Assembly: GCF_016903815.1 (NCBI RefSeq) | Contig: NZ_CP069973.1 | Reading direction: 5' to 3' (one strand) | DNA length: 64,000 bases | From: Escherichia coli | GTDB taxonomy: Bacteria > Pseudomonadota > Gammaproteobacteria > Enterobacterales > Enterobacteriaceae | Part shown: in pieces, positions 2,548 through 55,405 of the stretch | Layout of the letters: each line of letters begins with the position of its first letter | Position numbering within the stretch: the stretch's first letter is position 1 | The notes under the pieces: generated by a model | Databases searched by the model: none | What the model was told of the DNA's origin: nothing | What the model saw: the letters and a program-made list of their open reading frames with translations, nothing else | Program-made: the position numbers and the translations under genes

Positions 2548-3567
2548 TTAATCATCTGAATATCCATTGGGGTTTTGCACTTGCCATTTCCAAGCATCTC
2601 GAATCATATCAGCTAAATCTTTTTTAGCTCTCCAATTTAATTCTTCATAAGCTTTTGAAGGATCTGACCAACATTCAGCGATGTCACCGGGACGCCTACC
2701 AACAAATATATGTGGTACAGCGACATTTGTTATTTGTTCAAAAGTTTTTATTAAGTCAAGAACCGAATAACCTTTTCCAGTACCTAAATTATAGATCTTA
2801 CAATTCTCCCCTTCATTCGATGCCTTTACCGCTGCAACATGTCCTTCGGCAAGATCCATAACATGAATATAATCACGCACACCAGTACCATCATGGGTAT
2901 TATAATCATTACCGAAAATATGAACCTCATTGAGTTTACCTATTGCGGTTTGGCAAATATATGGCATAAGATTATTAGGTTTTCCTCTTGGATCTTCCCC
3001 TAATAATCCTGATGTGTGAGCCCCAACAGGATTAAAATAACGCAAAATAGTACACCGAAATGAACTATTCGAATAACATATATCCGATAGAATTTTTTCT
3101 ATTATTAGTTTAGATGTACCATATGGATTAGTTGTATGTCCAACTTCATTTGACTCTTTTATAGGAATACTCTTTGGTGATCCATATACTGTAGCAGATG
3201 AACTAAAAATAAATCTCATTACATCATGTCGTAACATCTCTTCAAGCAATGCTAGAGTTCCGACGACATTATTATCATAATAACTTATAGGTGAACTAAT
3301 CGATTGATCTACTGATTTTAAACCGGCAAAATGTATAACAGCATCAATATTATAACTATTAAAGATTTGATTAAGTACTGTTCTATTTCTAATGTCACCT
3401 TCTATAAATGATGCCTTTCTTAAGCAAATATTGTTAATCCTTTTTAATACTGATAAATGCGAGTTAGATAAATTATCAATTATGATAACTTCGTAGCCAG
3501 CATCTAATAACGACACGACAGTATGAGAACCTATATACCCTAATCCACCAGTTACAAGCAATTTCAT
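2548..3567 (-). CDS. UDP-hexose 4-epimerase (GalE family), O-antigen cluster
   Basis: 339 aa; MKLLVTGGLGYIGSHTVVSLL Rossmann motif, YGxxK (YGTSK) catalytic motif, GalE-like throughout; AT-rich. Confidence 0.8.
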   Translation of the reverse strand: MKLLVTGGLGYIGSHTVVSLLDAGYEVIIIDNLSNSHLSVLKRINNICLRKASFIEGDIRNRTVLNQIFNSYNIDAVIHFAGLKSVDQSISSPISYYDNNVVGTLALLEEMLRHDVMRFIFSSSATVYGSPKSIPIKESNEVGHTTNPYGTSKLIIEKILSDICYSNSSFRCTILRYFNPVGAHTSGLLGEDPRGKPNNLMPYICQTAIGKLNEVHIFGNDYNTHDGTGVRDYIHVMDLAEGHVAAVKASNEGENCKIYNLGTGKGYSVLDLIKTFEQITNVAVPHIFVGRRPGDIAECWSDPSKAYEELNWRAKKDLADMIRDAWKWQVQNPNGYSDD

Positions 3568-3605
3568 TTTATCTTGACCTCACTTAGACTTTAATAGTTC
3601 TCACG

Positions 3606-4343
3606 TTAGACTCGTTTTAACAAGGCATGAAAAAAATAATAAATGATATATTTAATTGAATGTAAGAATGAAAGGCGACGGTTTTTTCTATAAATATTCC
3701 ACTGCCAGGCTATTGCCTTAATTTTATTTGAGGATAAAGAATGTTCATTTACACGATATTTAGCTAAACACTCTTGTATACAATAAGCTCTATTGGTCAC
3801 TGATATTATATCCAACCACATTATATAATCTTCATGTCCTTCATTTACTTGGTTAAATATACCCAGTTTTTCCCTATTATATATACCTGTCAGGTTACCA
3901 ATAAAATTACTTTTAAGCATCATATCATAAGTTATTATTTCTGGTGAAATTCGAGCATTAATATATTCTTTTTCATTTGAAAATGTTATAAAATTACTGC
4001 ATACCAAATCCCAACCGTCTTCTAATTTCTCCATCTGTAAAGAAAGTTTGTTTTTAATCCACATATCATCACTATCTATAAAGGCAACATAATTGCCTTT
4101 ACATATATTAAGTGCAATATTTCTTGATTCCGCGACGCCTTTGTTATTTCTGTTTTTAATTACTGTTATTCTTTCATCTTGAAATTTGCCAGCTAATTCG
4201 AATGTATTATCATGCGATGCATCATCGATAATATATAGATGCCAATCCTTAAAGTCTTGATCAATTACAGAGTTTACAGCTTGTTCTATTGTTGCAGACG
4301 CATTATAAGCAGGCATTATTATCGAAACAGTTTCTCTTACCAT
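3606..4343 (-). CDS. Glycosyltransferase, family 2-like (O-antigen)
   Basis: 245 aa; N-terminal IIMPAYNASATIEQAVNSV...YIIDDASHDNT and a DSDD motif typical of GT-A fold GT2 enzymes. Confidence 0.7.
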   Translation of the reverse strand: MVRETVSIIMPAYNASATIEQAVNSVIDQDFKDWHLYIIDDASHDNTFELAGKFQDERITVIKNRNNKGVAESRNIALNICKGNYVAFIDSDDMWIKNKLSLQMEKLEDGWDLVCSNFITFSNEKEYINARISPEIITYDMMLKSNFIGNLTGIYNREKLGIFNQVNEGHEDYIMWLDIISVTNRAYCIQECLAKYRVNEHSLSSNKIKAIAWQWNIYRKNRRLSFLHSIKYIIYYFFHALLKRV

Positions 4344-4346
4344 ATT

Positions 4347-5399
4347 TTATATTCCAAGTAGTGATATCCATTTATGAATAATTGCATCAGCATTGTATTT
4401 CCTTGAATTTTTAATAGCATTAGTACTAAAAATGTTTGATAAATTATCATCAGAAGTCAATTTTCTTAACTTCTGTATAAAAAGCTCTCTGTTTTTAAAA
4501 GGGATAAGAAAACCATTAACATTATCAGTAATAATTTCTGCCGGGCCAGTTGGACAATCATATGCAACACTCGGGATTCCAAAACTCTGGGACTCAATCA
4601 ACACCATAGGTAATCCTTCATATAACGAAGTCATCGCATATATTTTGGCAGCATTATAGTAATTGCAAATTTCATCTGTTGTTTTAAACATTTTGATAGA
4701 TGACATTCCAGCTATGGCTTTTTCAAGAATCCTTTTATTAGGGCCATCACCAATGATATATAACGTCCAATTAGGTATATTTGCCTCATGCCAAATTTCA
4801 ATCAACTCATTAAAATTCTTTTGCTCTGTAAATCGTCCAACAGCGATCACAATATTTTCCCGTTGGTCATATGGTTTTATTATGTTATTGGATGTATCAA
4901 ATGGATTAATATTTGGTATTTGAATAACGTTTTTAATACCATATTTTGTAGTTAATAAATTATAATCATGCGAAGTTAAAACAATTACTTTTTTTGCTAT
5001 GTAATATGAAAATATTTTTATTAGCTGTATTGCTTTTTTAAAACTATTTAAGCCTACATGCTCATGGAAATATATATCATGCAGCCTGATAGCTTTCGCT
5101 AATATTCCACACTCCAGCGATAAGCGTCCCATCGACTCAACAATAACTTTATGTTTATTCTTCTTACAAAAAATCAAATAGGACAATAGAGAATAATAGC
5201 GCCATCCATTTCCATATTTAACAGAGATTTTATTTGATAAGAAATAGAAAGGATTGGCATGTTTTTTTTGTAATGAGAAAATTTCGACCTCAGCATTTTC
5301 TATATTACTTGATAATATATTTGATAATAATGCTGTAACTCTTTCTGTACCGCCCTTATTAGTAATATCAGAAATAATGAAACTAATTTTATTTTTCAT
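4347..5399 (-). CDS. Glycosyltransferase, GT-B fold (GT4-like) (O-antigen)
   Basis: 350 aa; C-terminal TSLYEGLPMVLIESQSFGIPSVAYDCPTGPAEII resembles the EX7E donor-binding region of GT4 enzymes. Confidence 0.65.
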   Translation of the reverse strand: MKNKISFIISDITNKGGTERVTALLSNILSSNIENAEVEIFSLQKKHANPFYFLSNKISVKYGNGWRYYSLLSYLIFCKKNKHKVIVESMGRLSLECGILAKAIRLHDIYFHEHVGLNSFKKAIQLIKIFSYYIAKKVIVLTSHDYNLLTTKYGIKNVIQIPNINPFDTSNNIIKPYDQRENIVIAVGRFTEQKNFNELIEIWHEANIPNWTLYIIGDGPNKRILEKAIAGMSSIKMFKTTDEICNYYNAAKIYAMTSLYEGLPMVLIESQSFGIPSVAYDCPTGPAEIITDNVNGFLIPFKNRELFIQKLRKLTSDDNLSNIFSTNAIKNSRKYNADAIIHKWISLLGI

Positions 5400-6328
5400 T
5401 TTTTGTTTCTCATAATATTACGAACTATTAGTCTTCTATACAGATATTGCATATTATAAATTGATAACAATACTGTAAGAAATATAAAGAAAAATCTTCT
5501 ATACATTGATTTTTGTTGCACTGCTAAAGCTAAACAACGACTAGAGGTAGAATGGAGTTTCTCGATAAGAATAGAGGAACTTAGCTTTTTATGCATACTC
5601 AAAACATCAAAATTATCTCTCCCTCTTCTAATTCTAAGTTTATGGAGTTTTAACACGTAATTATGCGCTTTTCTTTGAAGTAAACTAGCAACACTTGCAC
5701 TATTGCCCTGTCGATGTCTAATGTACATTAGATACTCAGGGTGATTATCACATTTATAACCCCGATCCAAAGCTCTTAATATAAAATCATAATCTTCAGC
5801 ATAAGGTATTTCCCTATAACCTTGTAACTCATCATATACCTCCCTCTTAGCTAACCAAATGTGAGCAATTGGAGAGACATATTTAGACACCTTTTTAACT
5901 ATATCTTCTCCAACAGGTGAGATACTTTTTGTCAAATGCTCACCTATCTCATTAATTGAGTGCATTTGACATCCAACAATATCTAAATCATTCGCCTCGA
6001 GATAATGCAATTGTTTTTCAATTCTATCAGGTGCTGCGATATCATCCCCGTCAAATCGCGCAATATATTGCCCTTTAGCTAACAATAACCCCTGATTTAA
6101 CGATTTTACAATTTTCTGATTTTCCTTATTATATATTATTTTAATCCTACTATCTGTACGCGCTAGATTTTGTATTTTCTCCCGCGTATTATCAGTTGAA
6201 TAATCATCAATTATTATTATTTCTATTTTTTTATAAGTTTGTTCAATAATACTATTTATGGCTTCATCAATCCATGCTCCGACATTATACGTCGGAATTA
6301 ATATTGAAATTAATGGTTCATTTTTCAT
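5396..6328 (-). CDS. Glycosyltransferase, family 2-like (O-antigen)
   Basis: 310 aa; ISILIPTYNVGAWIDEAINSIIEQTYKKIEIIIIDDYSTDNT GT2 signature; 4-nt overlap with the downstream gene. Confidence 0.7.
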   Translation of the reverse strand: MKNEPLISILIPTYNVGAWIDEAINSIIEQTYKKIEIIIIDDYSTDNTREKIQNLARTDSRIKIIYNKENQKIVKSLNQGLLLAKGQYIARFDGDDIAAPDRIEKQLHYLEANDLDIVGCQMHSINEIGEHLTKSISPVGEDIVKKVSKYVSPIAHIWLAKREVYDELQGYREIPYAEDYDFILRALDRGYKCDNHPEYLMYIRHRQGNSASVASLLQRKAHNYVLKLHKLRIRRGRDNFDVLSMHKKLSSSILIEKLHSTSSRCLALAVQQKSMYRRFFFIFLTVLLSIYNMQYLYRRLIVRNIMRNKK

Positions 6329-7455
6329 AACTTTTGATTACCTAAATATCTGGTTTCGTTATAAATAACAGCATTCAATATAAATAAAAATGGTGAATAT
6401 GCACCAAATAGCGAAATACCACTGATACATACTGGCAACCAAATATACAATGAATTAAAATTTGTCTTTTTAAGGCTATAAAAAATAAAAGTTATAAAAA
6501 GAAAAGACCCAATAAAACCAAATTCTAAAACTAAAGTTACATATATGTTATGTGCAAAAATCCCTAGTAATTGTTCTGTGTTTCCAAGCCCAACACCAAA
6601 CATATGTGTCATAAGTGATTGCGTAGTGTAAAATTCAAATGCTTGGCTAATAATGTAGAATTTAGAATTAAAACTCCCATCAATATTTGAATAATTGCTA
6701 TTTTCAAATAAGTAGCTTATTGACATGTAAATAAATACACATATGACAAATAAAAAAACAAGTGCTGAACGCTTTCCTATCTTTGCCTTATTATTCAGAA
6801 CATATAACATAGCAAGCAGCGTTACCATTGCAGCTCTTGACATTGTTAAAAATAGCAGAATATATGTTATGTACCTTGTATATTTGAAGTTATAGATTTT
6901 ATTATTTTTAAGAAACAATAAAAAACCTAAGATGGAAATATCTATTAATGCTGTAAAATTTGAATCAAAGTAGAATAAACTTTTTTTGAATGCATATAAA
7001 ATACCTTCTGATAGATTACCTATAATGACTCTAGTAATCAACTCCAGAAACATGAACATTACAAAAAACATCAAAAAATTTTTATAACATTTAATTCGTG
7101 TATCATAGTTTAGCACCATAAATACTTCATTTACTCCAACGCTAATAACCATCGAGTAAAAAAACAGGAAGGGTGTGATGTAATTTGGAGCTTCAGGATA
7201 CCCTGTTGTTTGGGTTTTATAATAGATACCTATAACCTGACACAGAAGAATTGCGAAAGCAAAAATAATAGTTACCATGCTAAACTTTGAAATTTTTGCC
7301 TTAACAAATATTAGCATTATTATAATACTTAACAACCCTGCACCATATATATAAGCAGGATTAATAGCAAGAGAATTTATGCTCAAAAATGCACAACATA
7401 AAAATGCCGTAAGATACTTACCGGATCTTTGTTTGTTAATTTGATTTTCGTTCAT
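6325..7455 (-). CDS. wzy: O-antigen polymerase
   Basis: 376 aa, very hydrophobic with many predicted TM segments and a large loop, in the canonical wzy position of a Wzx/Wzy cluster; low sequence conservation is expected for Wzy. Confidence 0.65.
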   Translation of the reverse strand: MNENQINKQRSGKYLTAFLCCAFLSINSLAINPAYIYGAGLLSIIIMLIFVKAKISKFSMVTIIFAFAILLCQVIGIYYKTQTTGYPEAPNYITPFLFFYSMVISVGVNEVFMVLNYDTRIKCYKNFLMFFVMFMFLELITRVIIGNLSEGILYAFKKSLFYFDSNFTALIDISILGFLLFLKNNKIYNFKYTRYITYILLFLTMSRAAMVTLLAMLYVLNNKAKIGKRSALVFLFVICVFIYMSISYLFENSNYSNIDGSFNSKFYIISQAFEFYTTQSLMTHMFGVGLGNTEQLLGIFAHNIYVTLVLEFGFIGSFLFITFIFYSLKKTNFNSLYIWLPVCISGISLFGAYSPFLFILNAVIYNETRYLGNQKL

Positions 7456-8464
7456 TCAAATTACTCGAATATGGTGACTGTAGAATTTCATTAATAAGAT
7501 GATTAATATCATACTTTCTAAGTATATTTTGCTCTATAATTACATTATTTTTTTTTAAAAATGATTTTAACGCATCGATATTACAATCCTGCTCCTTATA
7601 TATGAATATATTATCTGCATTATAAAAATCATATTCGGTAATACTTTCGTTATTTGTTATTAACTTTTTATTATAGAATAGGGCTTCCAATGTTCTAATT
7701 GTCAGACCTCCTTGTCCCGGTTGAACAATTTCAAGAATAGCTGTTGTTTGAAATAATTTATCAAGATACTCGTCATAATTCATTGCATTTTTTGCTAATA
7801 GTCTCTCACATTCATCATAATGCTTATTTTTATCAGGCAAAACACTAATTGAAAAGCTCAAGGAAGCATCGTCTAATAACTTTGCAAAGGTATTTAAAAG
7901 TTCAAGCCGCCCTTTATCTACCCCAATAAAGAAAATATCGAACATTACAGGATTGGTTAATTCCTCACACAGTTTTTTATTTAATACTTGACGACTAAAT
8001 TCCAATGAGTAAACTTGGGGATGATAATTTAGTTTATATTTAACCGAGTCATTATAATCAAACGTCCAAACTTGAACCCCAGTAATTTTTAATGTGATTA
8101 ATAGAATCTTAAACTCTATTTCTGAGATGTTCAATGTTCGTCTAGGATTCCATAACCAAATGGCTTGATTGGCACAAAACGAAAACTTATATACGCAAGA
8201 AGATATTCCTTTATAATCCTCTATACCAAAATAAATTGCATGATCATTTTTTGAGTGAATTTTCCTTTTTATATACGCAATGACAATCAAAAATAATGGT
8301 TTTATCCTTGATTTATACAAATTGACAAGAATATTTTTAGTTGCGCAAATATTTGTGATTTCAGTTAAATTATAAAAATATATTTTTTCCGAAGATAACT
8401 TTGAAAAAATAATCTCCGTTAAAAAATAATCATTTTTGACCAAATGTGTTATTTTTTTTACCAT
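7436..8464 (-). CDS. Putative glycosyltransferase, WecF (Fuc4NAc transferase, GT56)-like
   Basis: 342 aa; weak similarity by eye to WecF (KYKLNYHP versus RYKLFYPL; C-terminal GGLTIRTLEALFYNKKLITN). Assignment tentative. Confidence 0.4.
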   Translation of the reverse strand: MVKKITHLVKNDYFLTEIIFSKLSSEKIYFYNLTEITNICATKNILVNLYKSRIKPLFLIVIAYIKRKIHSKNDHAIYFGIEDYKGISSCVYKFSFCANQAIWLWNPRRTLNISEIEFKILLITLKITGVQVWTFDYNDSVKYKLNYHPQVYSLEFSRQVLNKKLCEELTNPVMFDIFFIGVDKGRLELLNTFAKLLDDASLSFSISVLPDKNKHYDECERLLAKNAMNYDEYLDKLFQTTAILEIVQPGQGGLTIRTLEALFYNKKLITNNESITEYDFYNADNIFIYKEQDCNIDALKSFLKKNNVIIEQNILRKYDINHLINEILQSPYSSNLNERKSN

Positions 8465-9708
8465 GATTTATATATGCCCCGAGATGCTACAAGTAAAATA
8501 ACGAAATCTAAACTGACTCTAATTGTCCACGCATATGCAGCCCCTATTACACCAAAATGTATAATAAAGAAATACAATCCAACAAGGTAAGGAATTATTT
8601 CAATGCAATGTATTAATGCCGTGATTTTCGCTTTACCTGCAGCCTGGATTGTAGCAAATGGAATCTGAGCATATGAATTAAATAAAAATCCTATCAGAAG
8701 AACTTGCAAAATATAAGTTGAATTTTCAGCATATTCTTTACCTAACCATATATTTAGGATTGTATACGATAATCCCACTCCAATAATTACAGCAGGTATG
8801 CAAACCATGCTGAGCATAATATAGGCTATTGTTTCATTTTTTTTTCTTTCCGAAAGTGTCTTTGCAGCACTTAATTTTGGAAATAATGCTCTTGCCAAAG
8901 CCCAGGGAATATTAATCAATCTATTAATAAATTCTGAAGGCGCTATATAAAACCCAACGCTTTTTGCCCCCAGAAGATTAGATAATATAAACCGATCAAA
9001 ATAACTCATGACCGGACTAATAATATTACTTACAGTAATCCAGCCACCAAACTTTAACAGTCGAAACAAAACTTGCTTATGAAATCTAATACCCGCTGTT
9101 AATACTATTTCTTTTGCACAATAATATGAAATAATTAACGAAACCATTCGACCACAAACTAATCCAATCATTGCACATGTCAGGGTTGGATGTAGAATGA
9201 TGAAAAAAGCTGGAAGCCCCGCTACTAATGAACTACTAATACATCGTTGAATATTTATATTAAAAAAATCTTCCATGCCCTCCAAATATGATACAAATAT
9301 CTGATTTAGCAAAAATAAAGGTATAGTTATAGTCAGTATCTTAAACGAAGATACAACATCATCCTTATATCTAGGGCTAACCTTTAACAAAGACACTAGG
9401 TTATCAATGTTCATAAACAAAAGAGCTGCACCAACTAAACCCAGTATAATTATAGCAAAATTAGATGTTGCAATAATTTTATTTAATTCAGATTTATTAG
9501 TTCTATTAAACGCAATTTCTCTAATAACAGCTCTTGTTAATCCTGCGTCAAAAATACTGGCATAACCAACAATAGCTGTACAAAGAGCAAACAAGCCAAA
9601 CCTTTCTGCTCCCAATTCACGAGCTATATATCCTAATGCAGGCAAAGCGACAATGGTTGGAATAATGTATCCACCAAAGTTCCATATACTATTTTTTAAT
9701 AAACTCAT
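8458..9708 (-). CDS. wzx: O-antigen flippase
   Basis: 416 aa polytopic membrane protein with a polysaccharide-biosynthesis (MOP) type N-terminus, directly downstream of rmlC. Confidence 0.7.
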   Translation of the reverse strand: MSLLKNSIWNFGGYIIPTIVALPALGYIARELGAERFGLFALCTAIVGYASIFDAGLTRAVIREIAFNRTNKSELNKIIATSNFAIIILGLVGAALLFMNIDNLVSLLKVSPRYKDDVVSSFKILTITIPLFLLNQIFVSYLEGMEDFFNINIQRCISSSLVAGLPAFFIILHPTLTCAMIGLVCGRMVSLIISYYCAKEIVLTAGIRFHKQVLFRLLKFGGWITVSNIISPVMSYFDRFILSNLLGAKSVGFYIAPSEFINRLINIPWALARALFPKLSAAKTLSERKKNETIAYIMLSMVCIPAVIIGVGLSYTILNIWLGKEYAENSTYILQVLLIGFLFNSYAQIPFATIQAAGKAKITALIHCIEIIPYLVGLYFFIIHFGVIGAAYAWTIRVSLDFVILLVASRGIYKSW

Positions 9709-9714
9709 ATTTTC

Positions 9715-10263
9715 CTAAAAATAATCAATTTTGTTAATGTGAGATGCACATTTATCTTTAGTGGAAAGGATAACATTTATATTCAATTCGGGCCAATCAA
9801 TGTCAATTGTATTATCATTCCAAATAATATTTCTTTCATTTTCTTTATTGTAATAATTATTCGTCTTATATAAAACCTCAGCAGTGTTAGATAATACTAA
9901 AAATCCATGAGCAAACCCTTCTGGAATCCATAATTGATGCTTATTCTCAGCAGATAAGTTCACCCCAACCCATTTTCCAAAGGTAGGCGAAGATTTACGA
10001 ATATCAACCGCAACATCAAAAACTTCACCGACCATACAGCGCACCAGTTTTGCTTGAGCATAGGGTTCTAACTGGTAATGAAGACCACGTAAAACACCTT
10101 TACTTGACTTCGAATGGTTATCCTGAACAAACTTAACTTTACGGCCTACCGCTTCTTCGAAAACCTTCTGGTTAAAGCTCTCAAAAAAGAAACCGCGCTC
10201 GTCGCTAAAAACTTTTGGTTCAAAAATCAGTACATCTGGAATTTCTGTTTTAATTACGTTCAT
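9715..10263 (-). CDS. rmlC: dTDP-4-dehydrorhamnose 3,5-epimerase
   Basis: 182 aa; MNVIKTEIPDVLIFEPKVFSDERGFF...VQDNHSKS...GVLRGLHYQ is RmlC/RfbC. Confidence 0.9.
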   Translation of the reverse strand: MNVIKTEIPDVLIFEPKVFSDERGFFFESFNQKVFEEAVGRKVKFVQDNHSKSSKGVLRGLHYQLEPYAQAKLVRCMVGEVFDVAVDIRKSSPTFGKWVGVNLSAENKHQLWIPEGFAHGFLVLSNTAEVLYKTNNYYNKENERNIIWNDNTIDIDWPELNINVILSTKDKCASHINKIDYF

Positions 10264-10267
10264 TTTA

Positions 10268-11146
10268 TTAATAACCTTTAATCATTTTGAGCAGATACTG
10301 ACCATAAGCATTTTTTTTCAGCGGTTCAGCTAATACTTTCACCTGCTCAGCATCAATAAACCCTTTACGGTAAGCAATTTCTTCCGGGCAGGAAACTTTC
10401 AACCCCTGACGCTCTTCAATTGTAGCAATGAAGTTGCTTGCTTCAATAAGACTTTGATGTGTCCCCGTGTCCAGCCATGCATAACCACGCCCCATCATGG
10501 CAACGGATAAACGCCCCTGTTCCATATAAATACGGTTAATATCGGTAATTTCCAGTTCACCACGGGCAGAAGGCTGAAGGTTTTTCGCCATTTCCACAAC
10601 GTCGTTATCATAGAAATAAAGCCCGGTTACCGCATAATTACTTTTTGGTTGTAGCGGTTTTTCTTCAAGGCTAATTGCCGTACCGTTTTTATCAAACTCA
10701 ACGACACCATAGCGTTCAGGATCATTAACGTGATAGGCAAATACCGTTGCACCACTCTCTTTGTTAACAGCGGCATCCATTAACTTCGGCAGGTCGTGAC
10801 CGTAGAAGATATTATCACCAAGTACCAAAGCACAATCATCACCACCGATAAACTCTTCACCGATGATAAATGCCTGCGCAAGACCATCCGGACTCAGTTG
10901 CACTTTGTACTGAAGATTCAGGCCCCACTGGCTCCCGTCACCCAGCAGTTGTTGAAAACGAGGAGTATCCTGTGGCGTACTGATAATCAAAATATCGCGA
11001 ATACCCGCCAACATCAGTGTAGAGAGCGGGTAATAGATCATCGGTTTATCATAAATAGGTAATAGCTGTTTACTGACAGCCATAGTCACAGGATAAAGAC
11101 GAGTACCAGAACCGCCCGCTAAAATAATACCTTTACGCGTTTTCAT
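10268..11146 (-). CDS. rmlA: Glucose-1-phosphate thymidylyltransferase
   Basis: 292 aa; [21 protein letters not shown] nucleotidyltransferase motif, RmlA/RfbA. Confidence 0.9.
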
Positions 11147-11203
11147 TTCATCATTCCTTTTAATTCATCTTGCTCCACCATCACGAACAAGATGCAAAAA
11201 CTA

Positions 11204-12103
11204 TTAAATAGCTGTAGTCGTAAATAATTCGTTGAGCATGCGTTTCACGCCAATCTGCCAGTCAGGCAAGACAAGCGCAAAGTTCTGCTGAAATTTTTCT
11301 GTATCAAGGCGAGAGTTATGCGGACGACGAGCTGGTGTAGGATAGGCTGTTGTTGGTACTGCGTTGAGCTTGTTGAGAGCAAGGGCAATGCCTGCTTTGC
11401 GCGCCTCTTCAAAAACGAGCGCAGCATAATCGTGCCAGGTTGTGGTACCACTGGCTACCAAATGGTACAAGCCTGCGACTTCCGGTTTATTCAGTGCTAC
11501 ACGAATGGCATGTGCCGTACAATCAGCCAGCAACTCTGCGCCAGTTGGCGCACCAAACTGATCATTAATAACGGCTAATTCTTCACGCTCTTTTGCCAGA
11601 CGTAACATTGTCTTGGCAAAATTGTTTCCTTTACCTGCATATACCCAGCTGGTCCGGAAAATAAGATGCTTCGCGCAATGTTCCTGTAACGCTTTTTCTC
11701 CGGCTAACTTGGTTTCACCGTAAACATTTAGCGGTGCGGTTGCATCCGTCTCCAGCCATGGCGTGTCGCCATTTCCAGGGAATACGTAGTCAGTTGAGTA
11801 ATGAATTACCCAAGCCCCAACTTCATTAGCCGCTTTTGCAATCGCTTCAACACTTGTCGCATTGAGTAATTGTGCAAATTCGGGTTCTGACTCAGCCTTA
11901 TCTACCGCGGTATGAGCAGCAGCATTAACAATAACGTCAGGACGAATTTTTTTGACGGTTTCAGCCACACCTTCTGGGTTACTAAAATCACCACAATAAT
12001 CAGTAGAGTGAACATCAAGAGCAATCAAATTACCCAAAGGTGCCAGCGCACGCTGTAGTTCCCAACCTACCTGCCCTGTTTTGCCGAAAAGGAGGATATT
12101 CAT
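11204..12103 (-). CDS. rmlD: dTDP-4-dehydrorhamnose reductase
   Basis: 299 aa; [24 protein letters not shown] is RmlD/RfbD. Confidence 0.9.
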   Translation of the reverse strand: MNILLFGKTGQVGWELQRALAPLGNLIALDVHSTDYCGDFSNPEGVAETVKKIRPDVIVNAAAHTAVDKAESEPEFAQLLNATSVEAIAKAANEVGAWVIHYSTDYVFPGNGDTPWLETDATAPLNVYGETKLAGEKALQEHCAKHLIFRTSWVYAGKGNNFAKTMLRLAKEREELAVINDQFGAPTGAELLADCTAHAIRVALNKPEVAGLYHLVASGTTTWHDYAALVFEEARKAGIALALNKLNAVPTTAYPTPARRPHNSRLDTEKFQQNFALVLPDWQIGVKRMLNELFTTTAI

Positions 12104-13188
12104 TACTGGCGGCCCTCATAGTTCTGTTCAATCCACGATTGATAGGCACCACTTTTCACATTATCAACCCATTTTGTATTGGACAGGTACCATTCCACTG
12201 TCTTCCGAATCCCGCTCTCAAACGTTTCCTGTGGTTTCCAACCCAATTCGCGGCTAATCTTCTCAGCATCAATCGCATAACGGCGATCATGTCCCGGGCG
12301 GTCGGCAACATAAGTAATTTGCTCACGATAAGATTTCTCTTTCGGTACAATCTCATCCAACAAATCACAAATAGTGAGCACTACATCGATGTTTTTCTTT
12401 TCGTTGTGTCCACCAATGTTATAAGTTTCACCCGCTTTACCTTCGGTTACGACGGTATATAACGCACGCGCATGATCTTCAACATACAGCCAGTCACGAA
12501 TTTGATCCCCTTTGCCATAAATAGGTAATGCCTTACCTTCCAGAGCATTAAGAATTACTAGTGGAATCAATTTTTCCGGAAAGTGATAAGGACCGTAGTT
12601 ATTCGAACAGTTAGTCACAATGGTCGGTAAACCATAGGTACGTTTCCACGCGCGGACTAAATGATCGCTGGATGCTTTTGATGCGGAATAAGGGCTGCTT
12701 GGCGCGTAAGCTGTCGTCTCAGTAAATAAGGGTAATTCTTCGTTATTATTTACTTCATCTGGATGAGGCAAATCACCATAGACTTCGTCAGTAGAAATAT
12801 GATGAAAACGGAAGCTATTTTTCTTGTCGCTATCAAGAGCAGACCAGTAATTGCGAGCGGCTTCCAAAAGGACATAAGTACCAACAATATTGGTTTCAAT
12901 AAATGCCGCAGGACCTGTAATTGAACGGTCAACATGGCTTTCAGCAGCCAGGTGCATCACTGCATCCGGCTGATGCTGAGCAAAAATCCGTGCCATTGCA
13001 GCAGCATCGCAAATATCCGCATGTTCAAAAATATAGCGTTCAGAATCAGAAACATCAGCAAGTGATTCCAGGTTTCCGGCGTACGTTAATTTATCGACAT
13101 TAACAACACTATCCTGCGTATTATTTATAATGTGACGAACTACAGCAGAACCAATAAATCCTGCGCCACCAGTAACAAGTATCTTCAC
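12103..13188 (-). CDS. rmlB: dTDP-glucose 4,6-dehydratase
   Basis: 361 aa; [21 protein letters not shown]...YxxxK SDR motif, RmlB/RfbB. Confidence 0.9.
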
Positions 13189-13263
13189 TCTTTTATTCCA
13201 TATTACTTCAGAGCATGCAGTGAAATAAGCGGCTCTTAGTTTGATTAATAGAGGTATTAATGC

Positions 13264-13275
13264 ACGCTACCGCCC
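13264..13275 (-). promoter_or_regulatory. ops element (GGCGGTAGCGTG) within a JUMPstart sequence upstream of the rml/O-antigen operon
   Basis: Exact 12-mer CACGCTACCGCC on the plus strand, which is GGCGGTAGCGTG in the direction of rmlB transcription, in the galF-rmlB intergenic region. Confidence 0.75.
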
Positions 13276-13559
13276 CTGGCTTTACTGCTACCAGTGCACT
13301 GCATGCATGTCTACGATGTGACGAGCGTTACCCACTCGCGCTTAGCTCGAAAAATTCAAACGCTAATTGTCTTACCAATCCGCTCTGGAAACAAGGAAAA
13401 TCCTGGAAAACTTTGACTAAAATCCTATTGCTAACTCGTTGTTATTCTGATTGTTTATATAAAACAACGGCAGGAATATTCGCAGCAAATTACTTTCGCC
13501 ACGAATCTTCACTGCCGTTATAATTTTCTTATCAACCGTTACATTCGGTCAGATTTTCA

Positions 13560-19740: not shown

Positions 19741-19801
19741 TTTTTCCTCATAAATTTGATGCCAGGTGAGGCTGCGTTTGTTTTGTTCGTTGCCGCTTTT
19801 T

Positions 19802-19990
19802 GCCTGATGCGACGCTGACGCGTCTTATCAGGCCTACAAGACCCGAGCACAGAACCGTAGGCCGGATAAGGCGTTCACGCCGCATCCGGCATTCAGTGCC
19901 TGATGCGACGCTGACGCGTCTTATCAGGCCTACAGGTCCCGAGCACAGAACCGTAGGATGGATAAGGCGTTTTACGCCGCATCCGGCAAC
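19802..19990. repeat. Cluster of REP (repetitive extragenic palindromic) units between wcaK and wzxC
   Basis: Repeated gcctgatgcgacgctgacgcgtcttatcaggcctaca units in alternating orientation. Confidence 0.8.
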
Positions 19991-20015
19991 CGTTGTCGGA
20001 ACCGAAAACAGCAAC

Positions 20016-24395: not shown

Positions 24396-24485
24396 GTCGT
24401 TACCCTTTTTCAGGCAATAGTTGGCCCTGACCGAAACGGCCAATTTTGTTTTTGTCGTTATTTACATCTCGGTTTCGCATTCATT

Positions 24486-24575
<90 letters not shown>

Positions 24576-24587
24576 CTGATGCGACGT

Positions 24588-26024
24588 TTACACCCGTCCG
24601 TAGCGATCCGCGAAACGCACCACATCATCCTCTTCGAGATAAGAGCCGGAGCGCACTTCAATTAAATCGAGCGGAATTTTCCCCGGGTTTTCCAGGCAAT
24701 GCGTCGCCCCCAGCGGAATATAAATGGACTCGTTTTCACCAAGCAGTTTGATATCACCATCAATGGTGACTTTTGCCGTTCCCGCGACAACCACCCAGTG
24801 TTCCGCGCGGTGATGGTGCATCTGTACCGACAAGCCCTCGCCCGGTTTCACGGTGATGCGTTTCACCTGGTAGCGGTCGCCCGCGTCGATAGAGTCATAT
24901 TTGCCCCACGGGCGATAGACTTCGCGATGCACCCGATGCTCATGGCGACCATCGGCTTTGATCTGCTCGACCACTTTTTTCACATCCTGCACCGCGTTAC
25001 GGTCGGCAATCAGCACCGCATCTTTGGTCTGCACCACTACCAGATCTTTCACCCCGACGGTGGTTACGAGGCCAGATTCGGCGTACACATAGCTGTTTTC
25101 AGTTTTGTGATTAATCACATCGCCGTGGCAAACGTTGCCCTCGGCGGTGTGGGCGCTAATTTCCCATAATGAGGACCAGGAGCCGACATCGCTCCAGCCC
25201 GCATCCATCGGCACCACAACGGCATCTGCCGTACGTTCCATGACCGCGTAATCCACCGACTCTTCCGGGCAGGCGAGAAACGCTTCTTCATCCACACGAA
25301 TAAAATCGAGATCCGGATCGACGGCGCTCATCGCTTTTTCACAGGCATCGAGAATATCCGGACGATATTTTTTCAGTTCTTCGAGATAGCGTCCGGCGCG
25401 GAACAGGAACATGCCGCTGTTCCAGTAATATTCGCCGCTTGCCACATAGGCCTGGGCGGTTTCCAGATTCGGTTTTTCGACAAACTGCGCCACTTCAAAG
25501 GCCACCGTATCCTGCTCACCCGCAGACACTTCACCGCGACGAATATAGCCATAACCGGTTTCTGGTAGATCCGGCACAATGCCGAAGGTCACCAGCTTGC
25601 CCGCTTCGGCATATGGCATGGCATTACGCACGGCGGCACGGAACGCGTCTTCATCGGCAATCACATGATCCGCCGCCAATACCAGCATTAACGGGTCGCT
25701 CTCCGGGCTATGACGTTTTGCCGCCAGCGCCGCCAGCGCAATGGCAGGTGCCGTGTTTCGCCCTGCCGGTTCGAGAATAATGTTCTCGGTAAGTTTGTTC
25801 AGTTGACGCAGCTGTTCCGCGACAATAAAGCGGTGCTGCTCATTGCAAATCACCACCGGGCTTTCGCACTCCACGCCGTTCAGGCGGCAGATGGTGGTTT
25901 GCAGCATGGTGAGATCGCCTTTCAGGCATAAAAACTGCTTGGGGTAAAGTACGCGGGAAAGCGGCCATAAGCGGCTACCGGAGCCACCTGCCATCACAAC
26001 TGGATAGAGTTTCGACTGCGCCAT
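24588..26024 (-). CDS. cpsB: Mannose-1-phosphate guanylyltransferase
   Basis: 478 aa; [24 protein letters not shown] nucleotidyltransferase N-terminus and C-terminal cupin region. Confidence 0.9.
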
Positions 26025-29843: not shown

Positions 29844-30392
29844 TTATTCAGTTTCAACGCGTTCGCGTATCACCACTGCGGGATTCCCCCGGCAAACCAC
29901 ATTTGCCGGAAGCGATTTAAAAACACTGCTTCGTGCACCCACGACGGTGCCGTAGCCAATCGTGACGCCTGGGGCAACAAAGACATCGGTTGCCAGCCAG
30001 CATTTCTCGCCAATCACAATAGGCGTGGCGTTAATGGTGAAATGTTGACTTGCATGGTCGTGGCTACCGGTGCATAAATAACTTTTTTGCGATATCACCG
30101 AATGTGCGCCAATGGTTATTTCACCGAGGGTATATAAATTGACGTCATCGCCGACCCACGCGTAATCACCTAAGGTTAATTTCCACGGATAGGTAATTTT
30201 TACTGACGGACGAATAACTACGTTTTTTCCTATTTTTGCTCCGAATAAACGTAATAAAAAAGCCCGCCAGCGATACAATACTTGTGGCGACCAGGCAAAT
30301 ATTGTTGCCTGTACTGCCCACCATAATTGCACTTTAATAGCGTTGCCGCCCCGGAACCCTTTCGGCACCGAGAAACCGCTTAAATCTTGCAT
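29844..30392 (-). CDS. wcaF: Colanic acid acetyltransferase WcaF
   Basis: 182 aa hexapeptide-repeat (left-handed beta-helix) acyltransferase. Confidence 0.85.
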   Translation of the reverse strand: MQDLSGFSVPKGFRGGNAIKVQLWWAVQATIFAWSPQVLYRWRAFLLRLFGAKIGKNVVIRPSVKITYPWKLTLGDYAWVGDDVNLYTLGEITIGAHSVISQKSYLCTGSHDHASQHFTINATPIVIGEKCWLATDVFVAPGVTIGYGTVVGARSSVFKSLPANVVCRGNPAVVIRERVETE

Positions 30393-30407
30393 TGGTTTTC
30401 CTTATAT

Positions 30408-31154
30408 TCAGACTTTGTTATATAAGGCTTTCGTCTTTGAGGTAGTACGTTGGCGTAAATGCCAGGATAATTCAGCCCAGAAGCCAGGCACATGTAATAT
30501 TTGTCGTTGGACTTTTTTCGCGTCAGCACACAATTCCATATTATTGGTGGTTGATACCCCACCCATGGAAAATTCAGACACCAGGCCATTGAGTTTTTTA
30601 AATGCATAACCGGCTTTATACATTTTGGCTGCCAGCGCGTAGTCGGAAGAAACTTTATATTCCAGGTCATAACGCCATTTTTTCAAGCCGGATACAGGGA
30701 AAAATATCGCCTGATGACTGGCGGGCAGGCTGTGATAAATATACCAGCCCGGTTTGGCGCTACGTTTAATTTTATGCCCGTCGCCAAAATCCAGCAGCGC
30801 ATCGCCGGTGATCATCATGTTATCTTTTTGCATTTTTAACTTACGGACAAAATTTGCGGCATCCTGATGAAAAATATCGCCCGAATTGAGAAACAACGCG
30901 AACTTGCCTTGTGCCATCGTAATGCCTTTGTTCATGGCGTCGTAGATACCGTTATCTGGCTCGCTGACAAAGCGTAGGTTATAGATACCATTGAGATTTT
31001 CCAGATACTCACGGGTGCCGTCATTGGAACCGCCATCGACAACAATCCATTCGAAGCTGATATCTTCCGCCTGCGCCAGATGCGCCAGCGAGGCATGTGT
31101 TTTGACTATCCCTTCGAGGTTACGAAACGCGACAGTGATTATGCTAAGCAACAT
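30408..31154 (-). CDS. wcaE: Colanic acid glycosyltransferase WcaE
   Basis: 248 aa GT2-like ([11 protein letters not shown]). Confidence 0.85.
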
Positions 31155-31164
31155 GTTCTTATTC

Positions 31165-32382
31165 TTACCTCGTAATATTTAACGCTTTTCGCAAAATAAA
31201 CGGACAGACGATTAAAAATGCATATTCCGGGCTAAATATCGAACCGGTAAAAAACAGCGATACCGGAGTAAAAAGATATAATTGCACGCGAAAATTGCGG
31301 TTATCACCAAAAGCGTTGATCATCATTTTTATCACTTTCCCCATGTACCACAGCGATAAAAACACTGCGAACCAGGAAAAATAAATAATCAGCAGATACA
31401 AACCATTGTCTATGGTTTTTCCGACATCCGCACCGTTAAATATTCCGAATGATGCGACGTATTCATAAAGTGAGCCAAATCTGACTACACCGTCAATATG
31501 GGTCAAAGAATAACCGACCATCACCAGCGGACCGACAATACGATAATACGATGACGATCCTTCCGTACCTAAATCGCCCAGACGGGTGGAAATATAAGGA
31601 AACGCGATTACCACACCAACCAGGAATACAGCCAGAGAAATCAATGCCAACGGTAACTTTTTCTTAATCGCCTCTTTATTCAGATATTGAAATGCCCACT
31701 CCAGCAAATAAAACAGGATAAAGGTCATAACCCCTGAAAACGATCCGGATAATATTATCCCTGCGAGAATCATAGCATCGGTTTTAGGCGTTTTGATACC
31801 AAACTGTTTGATGCTGAGCCAAATTGAGATTAATGCCAGAGCGAAAAATGCCGGTTCGAAATAAAGTGCTGTCGTGCGCTTGCCGCCGAATTTAATGAAA
31901 TTCAGTACATAGCTGTTGCTGTAAATCAGATATTTCGAAATCGACTCCATAATACTGCTGCCACCGGTGAGGATAATTTGCGCCATCTCCACCGCCGCCA
32001 GCGCCACCACCAGCCCGACCACCAGATAAAAGAAACGTAATATCTTGCGATGGTTGTGTGGCGAAATCGTTTTAAAGCGAATACTCCACACCATGCCAAT
32101 AATGATCACAATATAGACAAACAGCATGGTTGAAGTGACGTATTTACTGGCATCCAACGACTGACCAAACAGATAGTTGAACGCCGTGAGTCCCGCACCA
32201 ATCCCTAAGGCAATCATCAATTTTTTAACGCTGATGCGTTCTAAAAACAGCAGTAACAAGACAGGTAAAAAAGTGACGATAGTGATGGGGAAACTTTCAC
32301 CAAGCTGGGCGATTTTGACGTTAACCAGCAGGTAGATCAGCGGCAGCAGCAGGTAGCTACAGATTCTGATAGAAGTTGACAT
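31165..32382 (-). CDS. wcaD: Colanic acid polymerase
   Basis: Start trimmed to [15 protein letters not shown] (405 aa); multi-TM protein. The longer ORF to 32454 overlaps wcaC. Confidence 0.8.
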
Positions 32383-37607: not shown

Positions 37608-38747
37608 TTACCAGTTATGAATGTCGCTGGCTGTATCCGTCATGTAACGGACACCGCTAATAGTTGGCAGCAACTGATTGATCAGACGGTTCCAGCGGGA
37701 AACCGGGGCGGTGGTGACATACACCACGTCATAAGGTTGCAGGCGGAATTCTGTCGCCATCACCAGCGACGTCGCATCGGACATATCCAGCTGGTAGATA
37801 TTGGCAATCTTGCCGTTACGCCCGCCCTCGCCTTTCAGCGGACGAATGACAAAGATGCCGCTGGCGTTGGAGGTGGTCATGTCGATACCTTCGGCATTGC
37901 CCAGGGCTTCAGTCAGGGTCATGCCGCTAAAGTCCATTTTCAGGGTGCTCTGTTTCTTCACTTCACCCATCACAAACACTTTCAGATCATCATTACGCGG
38001 CACGTAGAGAATATCGCCGGGGTAAAGCAGTCGGTTCTGATTGAGGTCGCCGTTTTGCATCAGCGCCTGCAAAGAAATGCGTTCTTCACGACCATTGTGT
38101 GTTAGCACCACGTTGCGCCAGTCAGCGGTGTCGGTCAGGCCACCTGCGGCGTTGATGGCGTCGAGAATGGTCAGTGGTACGTTGGTGATCGCCTGTTGAC
38201 CGGATTTATTCACCTGACCTGAGATATAGGCCTTTTGCGAGCGGAAGGCGGCGATATTAACATCCACCTGCGGGTCAGCGATGTACGTCGCTAAGCGCCC
38301 GGTAATATCACTGCGGATTTCAGCGAGCGTTTTCCCGACTACGTGGACCTTGCCGATATACGGGTAAAACATAGTGCCGTCAGGCTGTACCCAGTTGCCG
38401 GTGTCGCTGGAGCTGCGGTACTGACCGGCTGGCGTGGTGAGTTCCGGGTGATCCCAGACGGTGACATTCAGAACGTCGCCCGGCCCGACGCGATACTGGT
38501 AATTCGCGATCTCACTTTCCAGCGTCATATTGGGGCGCGCTACATTCGGGCGTGGGCGTAATTGGTCAATCAGGCGCGGGGTCAGCGGATAAACATTCAC
38601 CATTTTGTCGAGATCGAAATCAGCGTCCTGCTGTTTGATGACGTCTTTGCCCATCGTCGACATATTGCTGCCCGGAAGTACTGTGCAACCGCTTATCAAG
38701 GTTACTGACACCAATAATGGCATCAATTTCATTTTGGATTTCATCAT
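37608..38747 (-). CDS. wza: Outer membrane polysaccharide export lipoprotein Wza
   Basis: 379 aa; lipobox LISGC; first gene of the cps operon. Confidence 0.9.
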
Positions 38748-38925
38748 TGTTTATTTATCACTTTGGCAGAGTAATTATCCTGTGCACTATTAATAGCAAT
38801 GTCGCCATGCACATTTACCTTGCAGTTAATTGAATAAAAATTTAACTGGCATCAGTCCTAAAAAAATTGATTTCATCCGCAGGCTATTGACAGAATAATT
38901 CAGACTGGTCTTTCAGGCATCCAGA

Positions 38926-38937
38926 CACGCTACCGCC
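38926..38937 (-). promoter_or_regulatory. ops element (GGCGGTAGCGTG) within a JUMPstart sequence in the wza leader
   Basis: Exact CACGCTACCGCC on the plus strand, about 180 bp upstream of the wza start; the same 21-mer context (cacgctaccgcccctggcttt) recurs at 13264. Confidence 0.75.
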
Positions 38938-39405
38938 CCTGGCTTTTTAGCTACCAATACACTGATTTAGCTTAATTTTTAAAACCCTCTCAACATACAG
39001 TCGTTGATGAGAAAGGGTTATTGCGGAAATTAACTTCCGAATATAAGGTGACATTATGGTAATTGAATATTGGCTCTCCAATAATGCAGGAGGAAGTGTT
39101 ACAGCTAACGGAATAGCAGGCAAGGTAACAATTCGGTAATTGGCTATTTTTAAGAATTATATTAAGTGTCATTCAATATGGTTTTTAGGAGTTTCTTTAG
39201 GTTGACAATATTTAATATTGCGCCTCCACATGCGATATTTCTTAAATAATGTTTTATTATTACCACTTTTAATTCAGGGATAATGTGAGGTTATTACCCT
39301 CAAATAATATGAGATAAATAGTGCTGCAACATTGCATTTTTGCCCCGATTTATCCATGATCGAATTGTGACATTTGTCATACAACGAATAGGTTTTGTAC
39401 TTACT

Positions 39406-40989
39406 ATGGAATGGATTGCCGATCCGTCTATCTGGGCCGGGTTAATCACGCTGATTGTGATCGAACTGGTCCTCGGCATTGATAACCTGGTCTTTATTGC
39501 CATCCTCGCCGAAAAACTACCGCCGAAGCAGCGCGACCGCGCACGGGTTACCGGGCTGCTGCTGGCGATGTTAATGCGCCTGTTACTGCTGGCGTCAATC
39601 TCCTGGCTGGTCACCCTGACGCAACCGCTGTTCAGCTTCCGCTCGTTTACCTTTAGCGCCCGCGACTTAATCATGCTGTTTGGTGGTTTCTTCCTGCTGT
39701 TCAAAGCCACGATGGAGCTGAACGAACGGCTGGAGGGGAAAGACAGCAATAACCCCACGCAACGCAAAGGTGCGAAGTTCTGGGGGGTGGTGACACAAAT
39801 TGTGGTACTGGACGCCATCTTCTCACTCGACTCGGTGATTACCGCCGTCGGGATGGTCGACCATTTACTGGTCATGATGGCCGCCGTGGTTATCGCTATC
39901 AGCCTGATGTTGATGGCCAGCAAGCCGTTAACGCAATTTGTTAACAGTCACCCGACCATCGTTATTCTCTGCTTAAGCTTCCTGTTGATGATTGGCTTTA
40001 GCCTGGTGGCAGAAGGTTTCGGCTTCGTCATTCCGAAAGGCTACCTGTACGCTGCCATTGGTTTCTCGGTGATGATCGAGGCGCTCAATCAGTTGGCTAT
40101 CTTTAACCGTCGACGTTTTCTTTCCGCTAACCAGACACTGCGCCAGCGGACTACCGAAGCGGTAATGCGCCTGCTTAGCGGGCAAAAAGAAGATGCGGAA
40201 CTGGACGCCGAAACCGCGTCCATGCTGGTGGATCATGGTAACCAGCAGATCTTTAATCCGCAGGAACGGCGGATGATTGAGCGGGTACTTAATCTTAATC
40301 AGCGTACCGTCAGCAGCATTATGACGTCGCGCCACGATATTGAGCATATCGATCTCAACGCGCCGGAAGAAGAAATCCGCCAGTTGCTGGAGCGAAATCA
40401 GCATACGCGGGTGGTGGTTACCGACGGTGATGACGCAGAAGATTTGCTCGGTGTTGTTCACGTTATCGACCTGCTACAACAGTCTCTGCGCGGCGAACCG
40501 CTCAACCTGCGGGTGTTGATTCGCCAGCCGCTGGTGTTCCCGGAAACCTTGCCGTTGTTACCTGCCCTGGAGCAGTTCCGTAATGCCCGCACGCACTTTG
40601 CTTTTGTAGTGGATGAGTTTGGCTCGGTGGAAGGGATTGTGACATTAAGTGACGTCACTGAAACCATTGCCGGTAACTTACCGAACGAAGTGGAAGAGAT
40701 CGACGCCCGCCATGATATTCAGAAAAATGCGGACGGTTCCTGGACGGCGAATGGTCATATGCCGCTGGAGGATCTGGTGCAATATGTGCCGCTGCCGCTG
40801 GATGAAAAACGTGAATATCACACCATTGCCGGGCTATTGATGGAATATTTGCAGCGTATTCCAAAACCTGGCGAAGAAGTTCAGGTGGGGGATTATTTGC
40901 TTAAAACGTTGCAGGTGGAAAGCCATCGCGTGCAGAAGGTGCAGATTATTCCGCTGCATAAGGATGGCGAGTTGGAGTACGAGGTGTGA
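39406..40989 (+). CDS. yegH: TerC-family membrane protein with CBS and CorC/HlyC-like C-terminal domains
   Basis: Start trimmed to [13 protein letters not shown] (527 aa); TerC-like TM region followed by paired CBS domains. Confidence 0.85.
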
Positions 40990-54562: not shown

Positions 54563-54739
54563 AAGAAATCCTTTCTTAGAGAATTATTGAGGTCCGGTAT
54601 CATACCGACTGCAACAATGAAATATGAGCAGGCAAAGCAACTTTCAGAATTAGGCCCGGCGGCGCAGAAAATTTTGCTATTCGCCTCGCAAGAACGGAGA
54701 GCCGTCGATTGACACTAAGGGCGGAGTGACATAATTTCA

Positions 54740-54885
54740 GGAGTGAGGGTTAGGGAGAGGTTTCCCCCTCCCCCTGGTGTTCTTAGTAAGCCTGGAAGCT
54801 AATCACTAAGAGTATCACCAGTATGATGACGTGCTTCATCATAACCCTTTCCTTATTAAAAGCCCTCTTCTCCGGGAGAGGGTTT
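54740..54885 (+). ncRNA. sibA: Sib antisense sRNA, copy 1 (antitoxin of ibsA); ends approximate
   Basis: Plus-strand promoter-like TTGACA (54709..54714) and CATAAT-like -10, transcript fully antisense to the ibsA ORF, hairpin ccctcttctccgggagaggg at 54863..54882. Confidence 0.55.
54783..54842 (-). CDS. ibsA: Type I toxin IbsA (19-aa hydrophobic peptide)
   Basis: Reverse complement translates MMKHVIILVILLVISFQAY-stop, identical to my recollection of IbsA. Confidence 0.8.
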   Translation of the reverse strand: MMKHVIILVILLVISFQAY

Positions 54886-55077
54886 CCCGTTTCAGCGTCC
54901 CGCTGAAATCGTCGGCTTACCTCCTTTCGCCCTGAATGCAGTCTATCGCTAACGCGTGAACAAAATAGTTTCCTCTGTGATTATTGCGTAACGACTCGCA
55001 AAGAATATTTGCTGGCAGGATCGCAGACTGCAAAGCCTGCAGATTGACAATCTTATCGTGAAGGCATAATTTCAGGA

Positions 55078-55220
55078 GTGAGGGTAGAGCGGGGTTTCCC
55101 CCGCCCTGGTAGTCTTAGTAAGCGGGGAAGCTTATGACTAAGAGCACCACGATGATGAGTAGCTTCATCATGACCCTTTCCTTATTTAAGGCCCCTTCCT
55201 CGGGAGGGGCTTTCCCGTTT
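55078..55220 (+). ncRNA. sibB: Sib antisense sRNA, copy 2; ends approximate
   Basis: Second repeat unit with TTGACA at 55044..55049 and a CATAAT -10; antisense to ibsB. Confidence 0.55.
55114..55170 (-). CDS. ibsB: Type I toxin IbsB (18-aa hydrophobic peptide)
   Basis: Reverse complement translates MMKLLIIVVLLVISFPAY-stop. Confidence 0.8.
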
Positions 55221-55405
55221 CAGCGTCCCGCTGAAATCGTCGACTTACCTCCTTTCGCCCTGTATGCAGTCTATCGCTGACTTGCGGATAAAATAGTTTC
55301 CAGTGTGATTATTGCGTAACGTCTCGCAAAGAATATTTGCTGGCAGGATCGCAGACTGCAAAGCCTGCAGATTGACAATCTTATCGTGAAGGCATACTTT
55401 CAGGA

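Follow-up and report, generated by a model that had tools for sequence, protein, structure and literature searches.

The window analysed here, a stretch of 64,000 nucleotides, is E. coli DNA with an O102 O-antigen cluster. Both regions of interest within it are 100% identical to E. coli strain 7/2, and the annotation of this strain was used for the genes. On the minus strand, the O102 O-antigen operon (2548-13188; about 10.6 kb), delimited from the strain 7/2 annotation, open reading frames and base composition, includes rfbB (13188-12103; the first O-antigen gene, with a GTG start), rfbDAC, wzx and wzy of the O102 families, three glycosyltransferase genes, one hypothetical gene and galE. The colanic acid operon (15838-38747; 22.9 kb), delimited from the same annotation and open reading frames, is composed of wza, wzb, wzc and wcaA-wcaM and is also transcribed from the minus strand. 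Between wcaM and rfbB lie the gene for GlcNAc-PP-undecaprenol 4-epimerase and galF (14453-13560), the latter upstream of the O-antigen operon, and gnd comes last, all on the minus strand. The distal 7.5 kb of the O-antigen operon has a GC content of 28-35%; in most of the colanic acid operon, by contrast, it is 49-57%. The low values cover the serotype-specific O102 part (3001-10500), and the colanic acid operon dips to 43% at 30001-31500.

Several other elements were noted along the window. An IS200-family element is located between gnd and ugd (389-980), represented by a tnpA open reading frame and a 146-bit Rfam match to STnc490. The Rfam algC RNA motif was found upstream of cpsG (24400-24449, minus strand), and REP/BIME-type repeats (Rfam naRNA4) are present inside the colanic acid operon, in the wzxC-wcaK gap (19801-20005) and in the cpsB-cpsG gap (24462-24591). 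Three tandem modules of Sib antitoxin RNA and Ibs toxin, with a period of about 328 nt, occupy 54709-55514 between yegL and mdtA; the strain 7/2 annotation carries three Ibs toxins at this site, and K-12 has two modules (sibA/ibsA and sibB/ibsB).

By exact-match search, the 21-mer CACGCTACCGCCCCTGGCTTT was detected in exactly two copies in the window, at 13263-13283 and 38926-38946, and the same two copies were all that was found when up to three mismatches were allowed. The first-pass annotation had pointed out the two copies and had given their positions as 13264 and 38926; the number of copies and the second position hold, and the first position is off by one, the correct value being 13263. 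The reading on the minus strand, AAAGCCAGGGGCGGTAGCGTG, is that of the coding strand of both operons and of all the polysaccharide genes. A chance origin of the pair was rejected because none of 100 dinucleotide shuffles of the window contained any match to the 21-mer; by simple arithmetic, the chance expectation of any shared 21-mer within 64 kb is roughly 1e-3. The identity between the two leaders amounts to 21 nt exact, 34 of 39 positions over the element described below, and 80% over 50 nt as measured with a repeat finder.

The last 12 bases of the 21-mer, GGCGGTAGCGTG, perfectly fit the 12-nt ops consensus GGCGGTAGnnTG, in agreement with the earlier claim that the repeat contains an ops element, and these two are the only perfect ops matches in the window on either strand. 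The ops of the O-antigen (rfb) leader (13263-13274, minus strand), an exact match to GGCGGTAGNNTG on the same strand as rfbB, lies within the span 13189-13559, which is the whole galF-rfbB spacer, and ends 75 nt upstream of the rfbB start; the pause position U11 would correspond to the T at 13264. The ops of the colanic acid (wza/cps) leader (38926-38937, minus strand), again an exact match, is in the yegH-wza intergenic region, with its G1 190 nt and its end 179 nt upstream of the wza ATG. Both ops sequences are on the non-template strand, as are rfbB-galE and wza-wcaM, and both precede the first gene of the operon, rfbB and wza, respectively. The sites are thus situated on the operon strand and, as had been proposed, in the leaders of long polysaccharide operons.

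In each leader the ops forms the end of a 39-nt JUMPstart element, represented in Rfam by family RF01707. The rfb element CAGTGCACTGGTAGCAGTAAAGCCAGGGGCGGTAGCGTG (13263-13301, minus strand) scored 58.9 bits and the cps element CAGTGTATTGGTAGCTAAAAAGCCAGGGGCGGTAGCGTG (38926-38964, minus strand) 57.3 bits, both matches being full-length and above the gathering score of 35. The RF01707 consensus consists of seven unpaired bases, a 5-bp stem with its loop, and 13 unpaired bases ending in the ops. In the rfb leader, the stem would be formed by CUGGU (13294-13290) with GCCAG (13280-13276), the spacer G following at 13275, and in the cps leader by UUGGU (38957-38953) with GCCAG (38943-38939). The 21-mer (13283-13263 and 38946-38926 in the direction of the operons) is therefore made up of three loop bases, the 3' arm of the hairpin, one spacer G and the 12-nt ops. 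The 5' halves of the two elements differ at 5 of 18 positions.

For a survey of the hairpin, the pattern AGCCNGGGGCGGTAGCGTG was scanned in one genome per species, yielding at least 120 loci in about 80 species; those listed are mostly from Enterobacterales, with a single Aeromonas locus and a few that are probably contaminants or chance matches. Standard pairs occupied 96.1% of the stem cells among the 108 distinct sequences of the loci listed, a value to be read with the fact that the search pattern itself fixed four of the five bases of the 3' arm and that the sequences are related to each other. At the single stem pair left free by the pattern, the composition was UA 77, AU 13, GU 8, GC 3 and other 7 (n=108), with 24 double changes against 6 expected, a number as high as this being reached in 0 of 500 shuffles. 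When the partner columns were shifted, the pairing of the stem dropped to 20-59%. Based on these sequence comparisons, the 5-bp hairpin just upstream of ops appears to be kept by compensatory changes. Because G-U pairs are used, the structure belongs to the sense strand and would be formed by either the RNA or the non-template DNA. Thermodynamic support for the JUMPstart hairpin was not obtained, the fold z-score being about 0 for both copies, and the case for the hairpin is based on covariation. The hairpin is the centroid fold in the rfb element, and the free cps 39-mer prefers another minimum-energy fold.

The genes located downstream of the JUMPstart elements in other species were classified by Pfam, using 96 first downstream open reading frames from the loci listed. 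The commonest families were polysaccharide-related, including RmlB-like proteins (22), WaaQ-type heptosyltransferases of family 9 (16), Wza (16), initiating sugar transferases (9), ABC-2 permeases (5), family-4 glycosyltransferases (4) and Wzx-type flippases (3). The exact 21-mer was found again in 20 of the 120 loci listed, from other species, indicating that the identity seen in the window is that of the conserved JUMPstart core and is not specific to this strain. Two matches came from unrelated phyla, one from Arthrobacter sp. GMC3 (L057; a 4155-nt contig with 2x coverage) and the other from an Erysipelotrichia MAG (L048). In the Arthrobacter contig, the sequence preceding the matched pattern is identical over 30 nt to its counterpart in the K-12 rfb leader, and both copies look like enterobacterial contamination or mis-binning.

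The rfb element also coincides with a boundary of homology. Among 4450 E. coli records matching the galF-rfbB query, 60 evenly spaced ones were sampled, and in 14 of these the match ended at query position 437-446, corresponding to the 3' end of ops. Since homology stops at this end (13263), to within a few bases, in E. coli genomes with other O-antigen clusters, CFT073 among them, the JUMPstart element marks where the exchangeable O-antigen cluster is joined on its upstream side, a property of the element which we take to be already known. Homology in the galF-rfbB region also broke off close to 13362, around 13500-13508 and at the stop codon of galF.

The zone of the rfb promoter and transcript start was provisionally placed at 13341-13394 (minus strand) by alignment with E. 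coli CFT073 and by hexamers read by eye. The start of the CFT073 O-antigen transcript aligns to G13341 of the window. A weak pair of -35 (TTGTTT, 13394-13389) and -10 (GACAAT, 13372-13367) hexamers would give a start near 13361. The rfb leader of O7 was reportedly found by Marolda and Valvano in 1998 to be 173 nt in length, which would likewise put the start near 13361. When the minus strand was scanned with the promoter consensus, no rfb promoter was detected ahead of ops. In the cps leader, a promoter-like site of TGGAGA, a 16-nt spacer and CATAAT (39053-39080, minus strand), conserved in K-12 and CFT073, would place the start near 39046, some 110 nt ahead of ops; this site was the only promoter-like match in the scan of 38650-39450, in which 3.6 matches were expected by chance, and is no better than chance. 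By homology to CFT073, transcription of both operons in this strain would be expected to start upstream of ops, although the promoter scans count against this. The RcsAB-box consensus, with up to three mismatches, gave no match in the cps upstream region, and a looser RcsB box matched TAAGAATTATATTA at 39151-39164, such matches being fewer in the whole window than expected by chance.

Directly after the galF stop codon, a long hairpin followed by GUUUUAUAU was identified by fold energy (13455-13521, minus strand). It has a 27-bp stem and a fold energy of -38.3 kcal/mol (z = -5.96; none of 200 shuffles as good). This structure looks like the galF terminator, which would insulate the rfb promoter from upstream transcription. 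A simple terminator scan missed it, and it also showed up as spurious miRNA-like hairpin matches.

The two leaders were compared with those of K-12 and of CFT073. With K-12, the window leaders share 97% (rfb) and 99% (cps) identity, and in K-12 the JUMPstart elements are located at the same loci and include the same 21-mer; the cps element is identical to that of the window, and the two rfb elements are distinguished by 2 of 39 positions, which both fall in the 5' half. Apart from the O-antigen cluster, which is O16 in K-12 and O102 in the window, nothing of substance differs. Hobbs and Reeves are said to have described the JUMPstart element in 1994 as common to these operons, and Stout (1996) is reportedly to be named with them for the K-12 rfb and cps leaders. 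In the case of CFT073, the leaders of wzx (O6 O-antigen) and wza have the same ops and JUMPstart 3' half as those of the window. For the cps leader, the identity is about 98% over the whole and 100% between ops and wza. For the O-antigen leader, CFT073 can be matched to the window from galF through ops, and the homology stops one base past ops, since another O-antigen cluster comes next.

These CFT073 leaders have been studied experimentally. Wild-type cells show an RfaH ChIP-seq signal from the O-antigen (wzx) leader onward (PMC9765446). On the wza-wcaM operon, RfaH was detected only in a strain carrying both the delta-hns and the delta-stpA deletion, in which a sigma-70 peak also appeared upstream; it was not detected at wza in wild-type cells in rich medium, where the cps promoter is silenced by H-NS (PMC9765446). 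The cps leader was bound only in the absence of H-NS and StpA because its promoter is normally silent, and the RfaH signal at CFT073 wza indicates that the ops is transcribed there. The sigma-70 peaks are upstream of ops (PMC9765446), and the O-antigen ops is 67 nt downstream of the transcript start at 2400469 (PMC9765446, Data set S2). A transcript start downstream of ops, named by the first-pass annotation as the observation that would speak against its reading, is therefore not what is found for the O-antigen operon of CFT073. The ops of wza is listed at -190 (PMC9765446, Data set S2), the same distance as in the window. In the corresponding region of CFT073 (L004; 2423192-2424776), both wza and wzb carry pseudogene annotations (frameshift and internal stop), and the leader and ops are intact and bound by RfaH.

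The mechanism of RfaH recruitment is known in some detail. RNA polymerase pauses at U11 of ops (PMC5995543, PMC11001881); the paused complex is pre-translocated, a hairpin is formed by the non-template strand, and RfaH binds this hairpin and then stays with the polymerase. RfaH counteracts H-NS-dependent termination (PMC9765446). The waaQ and rfb operons carry ops and JUMPstart in 5' untranslated regions without ribosome-binding sites (PMC6358824). Consistent with the latter report, only a weak Shine-Dalgarno sequence could be read at the rfbB start and no recognisable one at the wza start.

Taken with the position and strand of the elements, these observations lead us to conclude, with a probability of roughly 90%, that each site is a JUMPstart element ending in ops within a transcribed untranslated leader and that it loads RfaH for expression of the distal genes. 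RNA polymerase transcribing the ops would pause at U11, and the non-template DNA would make a small hairpin on the polymerase surface, to which RfaH would bind. RfaH would then ride with the polymerase, exclude NusG and suppress both Rho- and H-NS-dependent termination, and would also help bring ribosomes to messages with weak or absent Shine-Dalgarno sequences. As a result, distal genes would be expressed over about 10.6 kb in the O102 operon and over 22.9 kb in the colanic acid operon. The distal O-antigen genes, at 28-35% GC, are typical of H-NS substrates, which fits the published picture of RfaH. Of the 5426 complete E. coli genomes, strain 7/2 among them, 5425 contain the rfaH gene. The present analysis provides the sequence and strand of the sites, their family membership, the covariation of the hairpin and the homology to experimentally studied leaders. 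RfaH control of both operons in this strain is supported by this homology, by which the expression of the distal genes would be expected to depend on RfaH and on ops.

The feature is thus the JUMPstart/ops element as already known, at the two chromosomal sites for which it is best known, and nothing about it is unusual in the window. The first-pass annotation had itself described it as known biology, correctly so, since RfaH/ops control of the O-antigen and colanic acid operons is established and Rfam holds the family. The JUMPstart element is useful for annotation, as it marks the starts of transcription units and flags the RfaH regulon. The comparison also touches on the question of why polysaccharide operons keep a hairpin beside ops and other RfaH targets do not.

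With respect to this question, we compared all eight leaders bound by RfaH in CFT073, as identified by Hustmyer et al. 2022 (PMC9765446), together with the intragenic ops in ushA. The JUMPstart 5' half was present only in four of these, the O-antigen, cps, rfaQ (with a CAGGU/GCCUG stem) and kps leaders, and absent from four other bound leaders, hlyC, tssH, c4518 and c1882, which carry ops alone. The latter leaders have the same 12-nt ops as the window and are bound by RfaH in vivo, indicating that the 12-nt ops is sufficient for recruitment. The identity of the 21-mer had been put forward as a sign of shared RfaH control; this holds for its 12-nt ops, and the nine additional bases, which belong to the hairpin and loop and are absent from four bound leaders, are not needed for recruitment. 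The nine extra shared bases reflect a second constraint, specific to polysaccharide operons. The waaQ (rfaQ) leader, like those of the window, carries JUMPstart and ops in the 5' untranslated region of a long operon, in this case for LPS. Its hairpin differs from the CUGGU/GCCAG of the window by a compensatory pair change, and as a consequence waaQ does not have the 21-mer, the match just upstream of ops being 6 of 9 bases.

One possible role of the stem is suggested by its position. The JUMPstart stem ends one base before G1 of ops, so that 12 nt separate it from the 3' end of the RNA in the complex paused at U11. In the his leader, about 11-12 nt lie between the base of the pause stem and the 3' end of the paused RNA. 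The spacing of JUMPstart is thus similar to that of the hairpin-stabilised his pause; in the literature, however, the ops pause is biochemically distinct from hairpin-stabilised pauses, being pre-translocated and stabilised by a DNA hairpin. From this spacing we raise, as a tentative and on balance doubtful proposal, that the JUMPstart hairpin may be a functional nascent-RNA element in the register of an exit-channel pause hairpin. If so, the hairpin could lengthen the ops pause or limit backtracking, making RfaH loading more efficient at polysaccharide operons. In the collection of papers searched, JUMPstart in combination with hairpin and pause retrieved nothing addressing the role of the hairpin.

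Among the leaders with ops alone, those of c4518 (L007) and hlyC (L009) have in common a conserved motif, about 45 nt long and located upstream of ops, TTCTGGTNCCGGTTGAT..GGGTAA..CCGGAA. A hairpin predicted within this motif ends one base before G1 of ops, in the same register as the JUMPstart hairpin, and the occurrence of an unrelated predicted hairpin in this register hints at convergence. The tally of hairpins beside ops over the eight CFT073 leaders is a hint and not a test, because only two independent sequence families are involved.

Alternatively, the nine bases beyond ops could serve a role other than loading, for instance in transcript stability or as part of a short leader RNA that titrates RfaH, as RirA from waaQ. 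Such a role would agree with the G-U pairs, which make the hairpin structure specific to the sense strand, and with the four CFT073 leaders that are bound by RfaH and work without the JUMPstart 5' half, but a hairpin of just 5 bp with a fold z-score near 0 speaks against it. We consider this unlikely, and we know of no RirA-like RNA for the rfb or cps leaders.

The proposal of shared RfaH control itself has to be divided into mechanism and timing. The mechanism is upheld by the binding of RfaH to both homologous leaders in CFT073; common timing is not, since the cps leader was bound only without H-NS and StpA. It might then be argued that the cps ops is conserved but effectively unused, that expression is driven by RcsAB and by relief from H-NS with RfaH playing a minor part, and that control is not really shared. 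With a GC content of 49-57%, the cps operon is indeed a much less obvious target of H-NS during elongation than the O-antigen operon at 28-35%. Against this view, RfaH was recruited at wza in CFT073 once the promoter fired, and K-12, CFT073 and this strain have one and the same 39-nt cps element even though the leader just upstream varies. The JUMPstart element is also retained by Wza-type operons of many genera among the loci listed. Colanic acid synthesis is described in the literature as controlled by JUMPstart and RfaH, and reviews and papers class it as RfaH-regulated. An idle cps ops is accordingly judged very improbable, and loading of RfaH at both leaders is the reading that we retain.

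No alignment was found between the flanks of the rfb and cps leaders beyond the block of about 50 nt, and duplication of a larger segment was rejected on the basis of these unalignable flanks. That the 21-nt identity arose by recent duplication or gene conversion between the leaders, instead of by selection on a shared function, is scarcely credible: the two copies are direct repeats in the same orientation on one chromosome, 25.66 kb apart, but their identity ends within 50 nt, their 5' halves are diverged as given above, the JUMPstart core precedes three or more types of operon per genome in about 80 species among the loci listed, one-sixth of these loci (20/120) carry the exact 21-mer in other species, and in an alignment the copies group by operon type. 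From these sequence relationships, the similarity between the rfb and cps leaders is best described as a short conserved motif and not as a duplicated segment.
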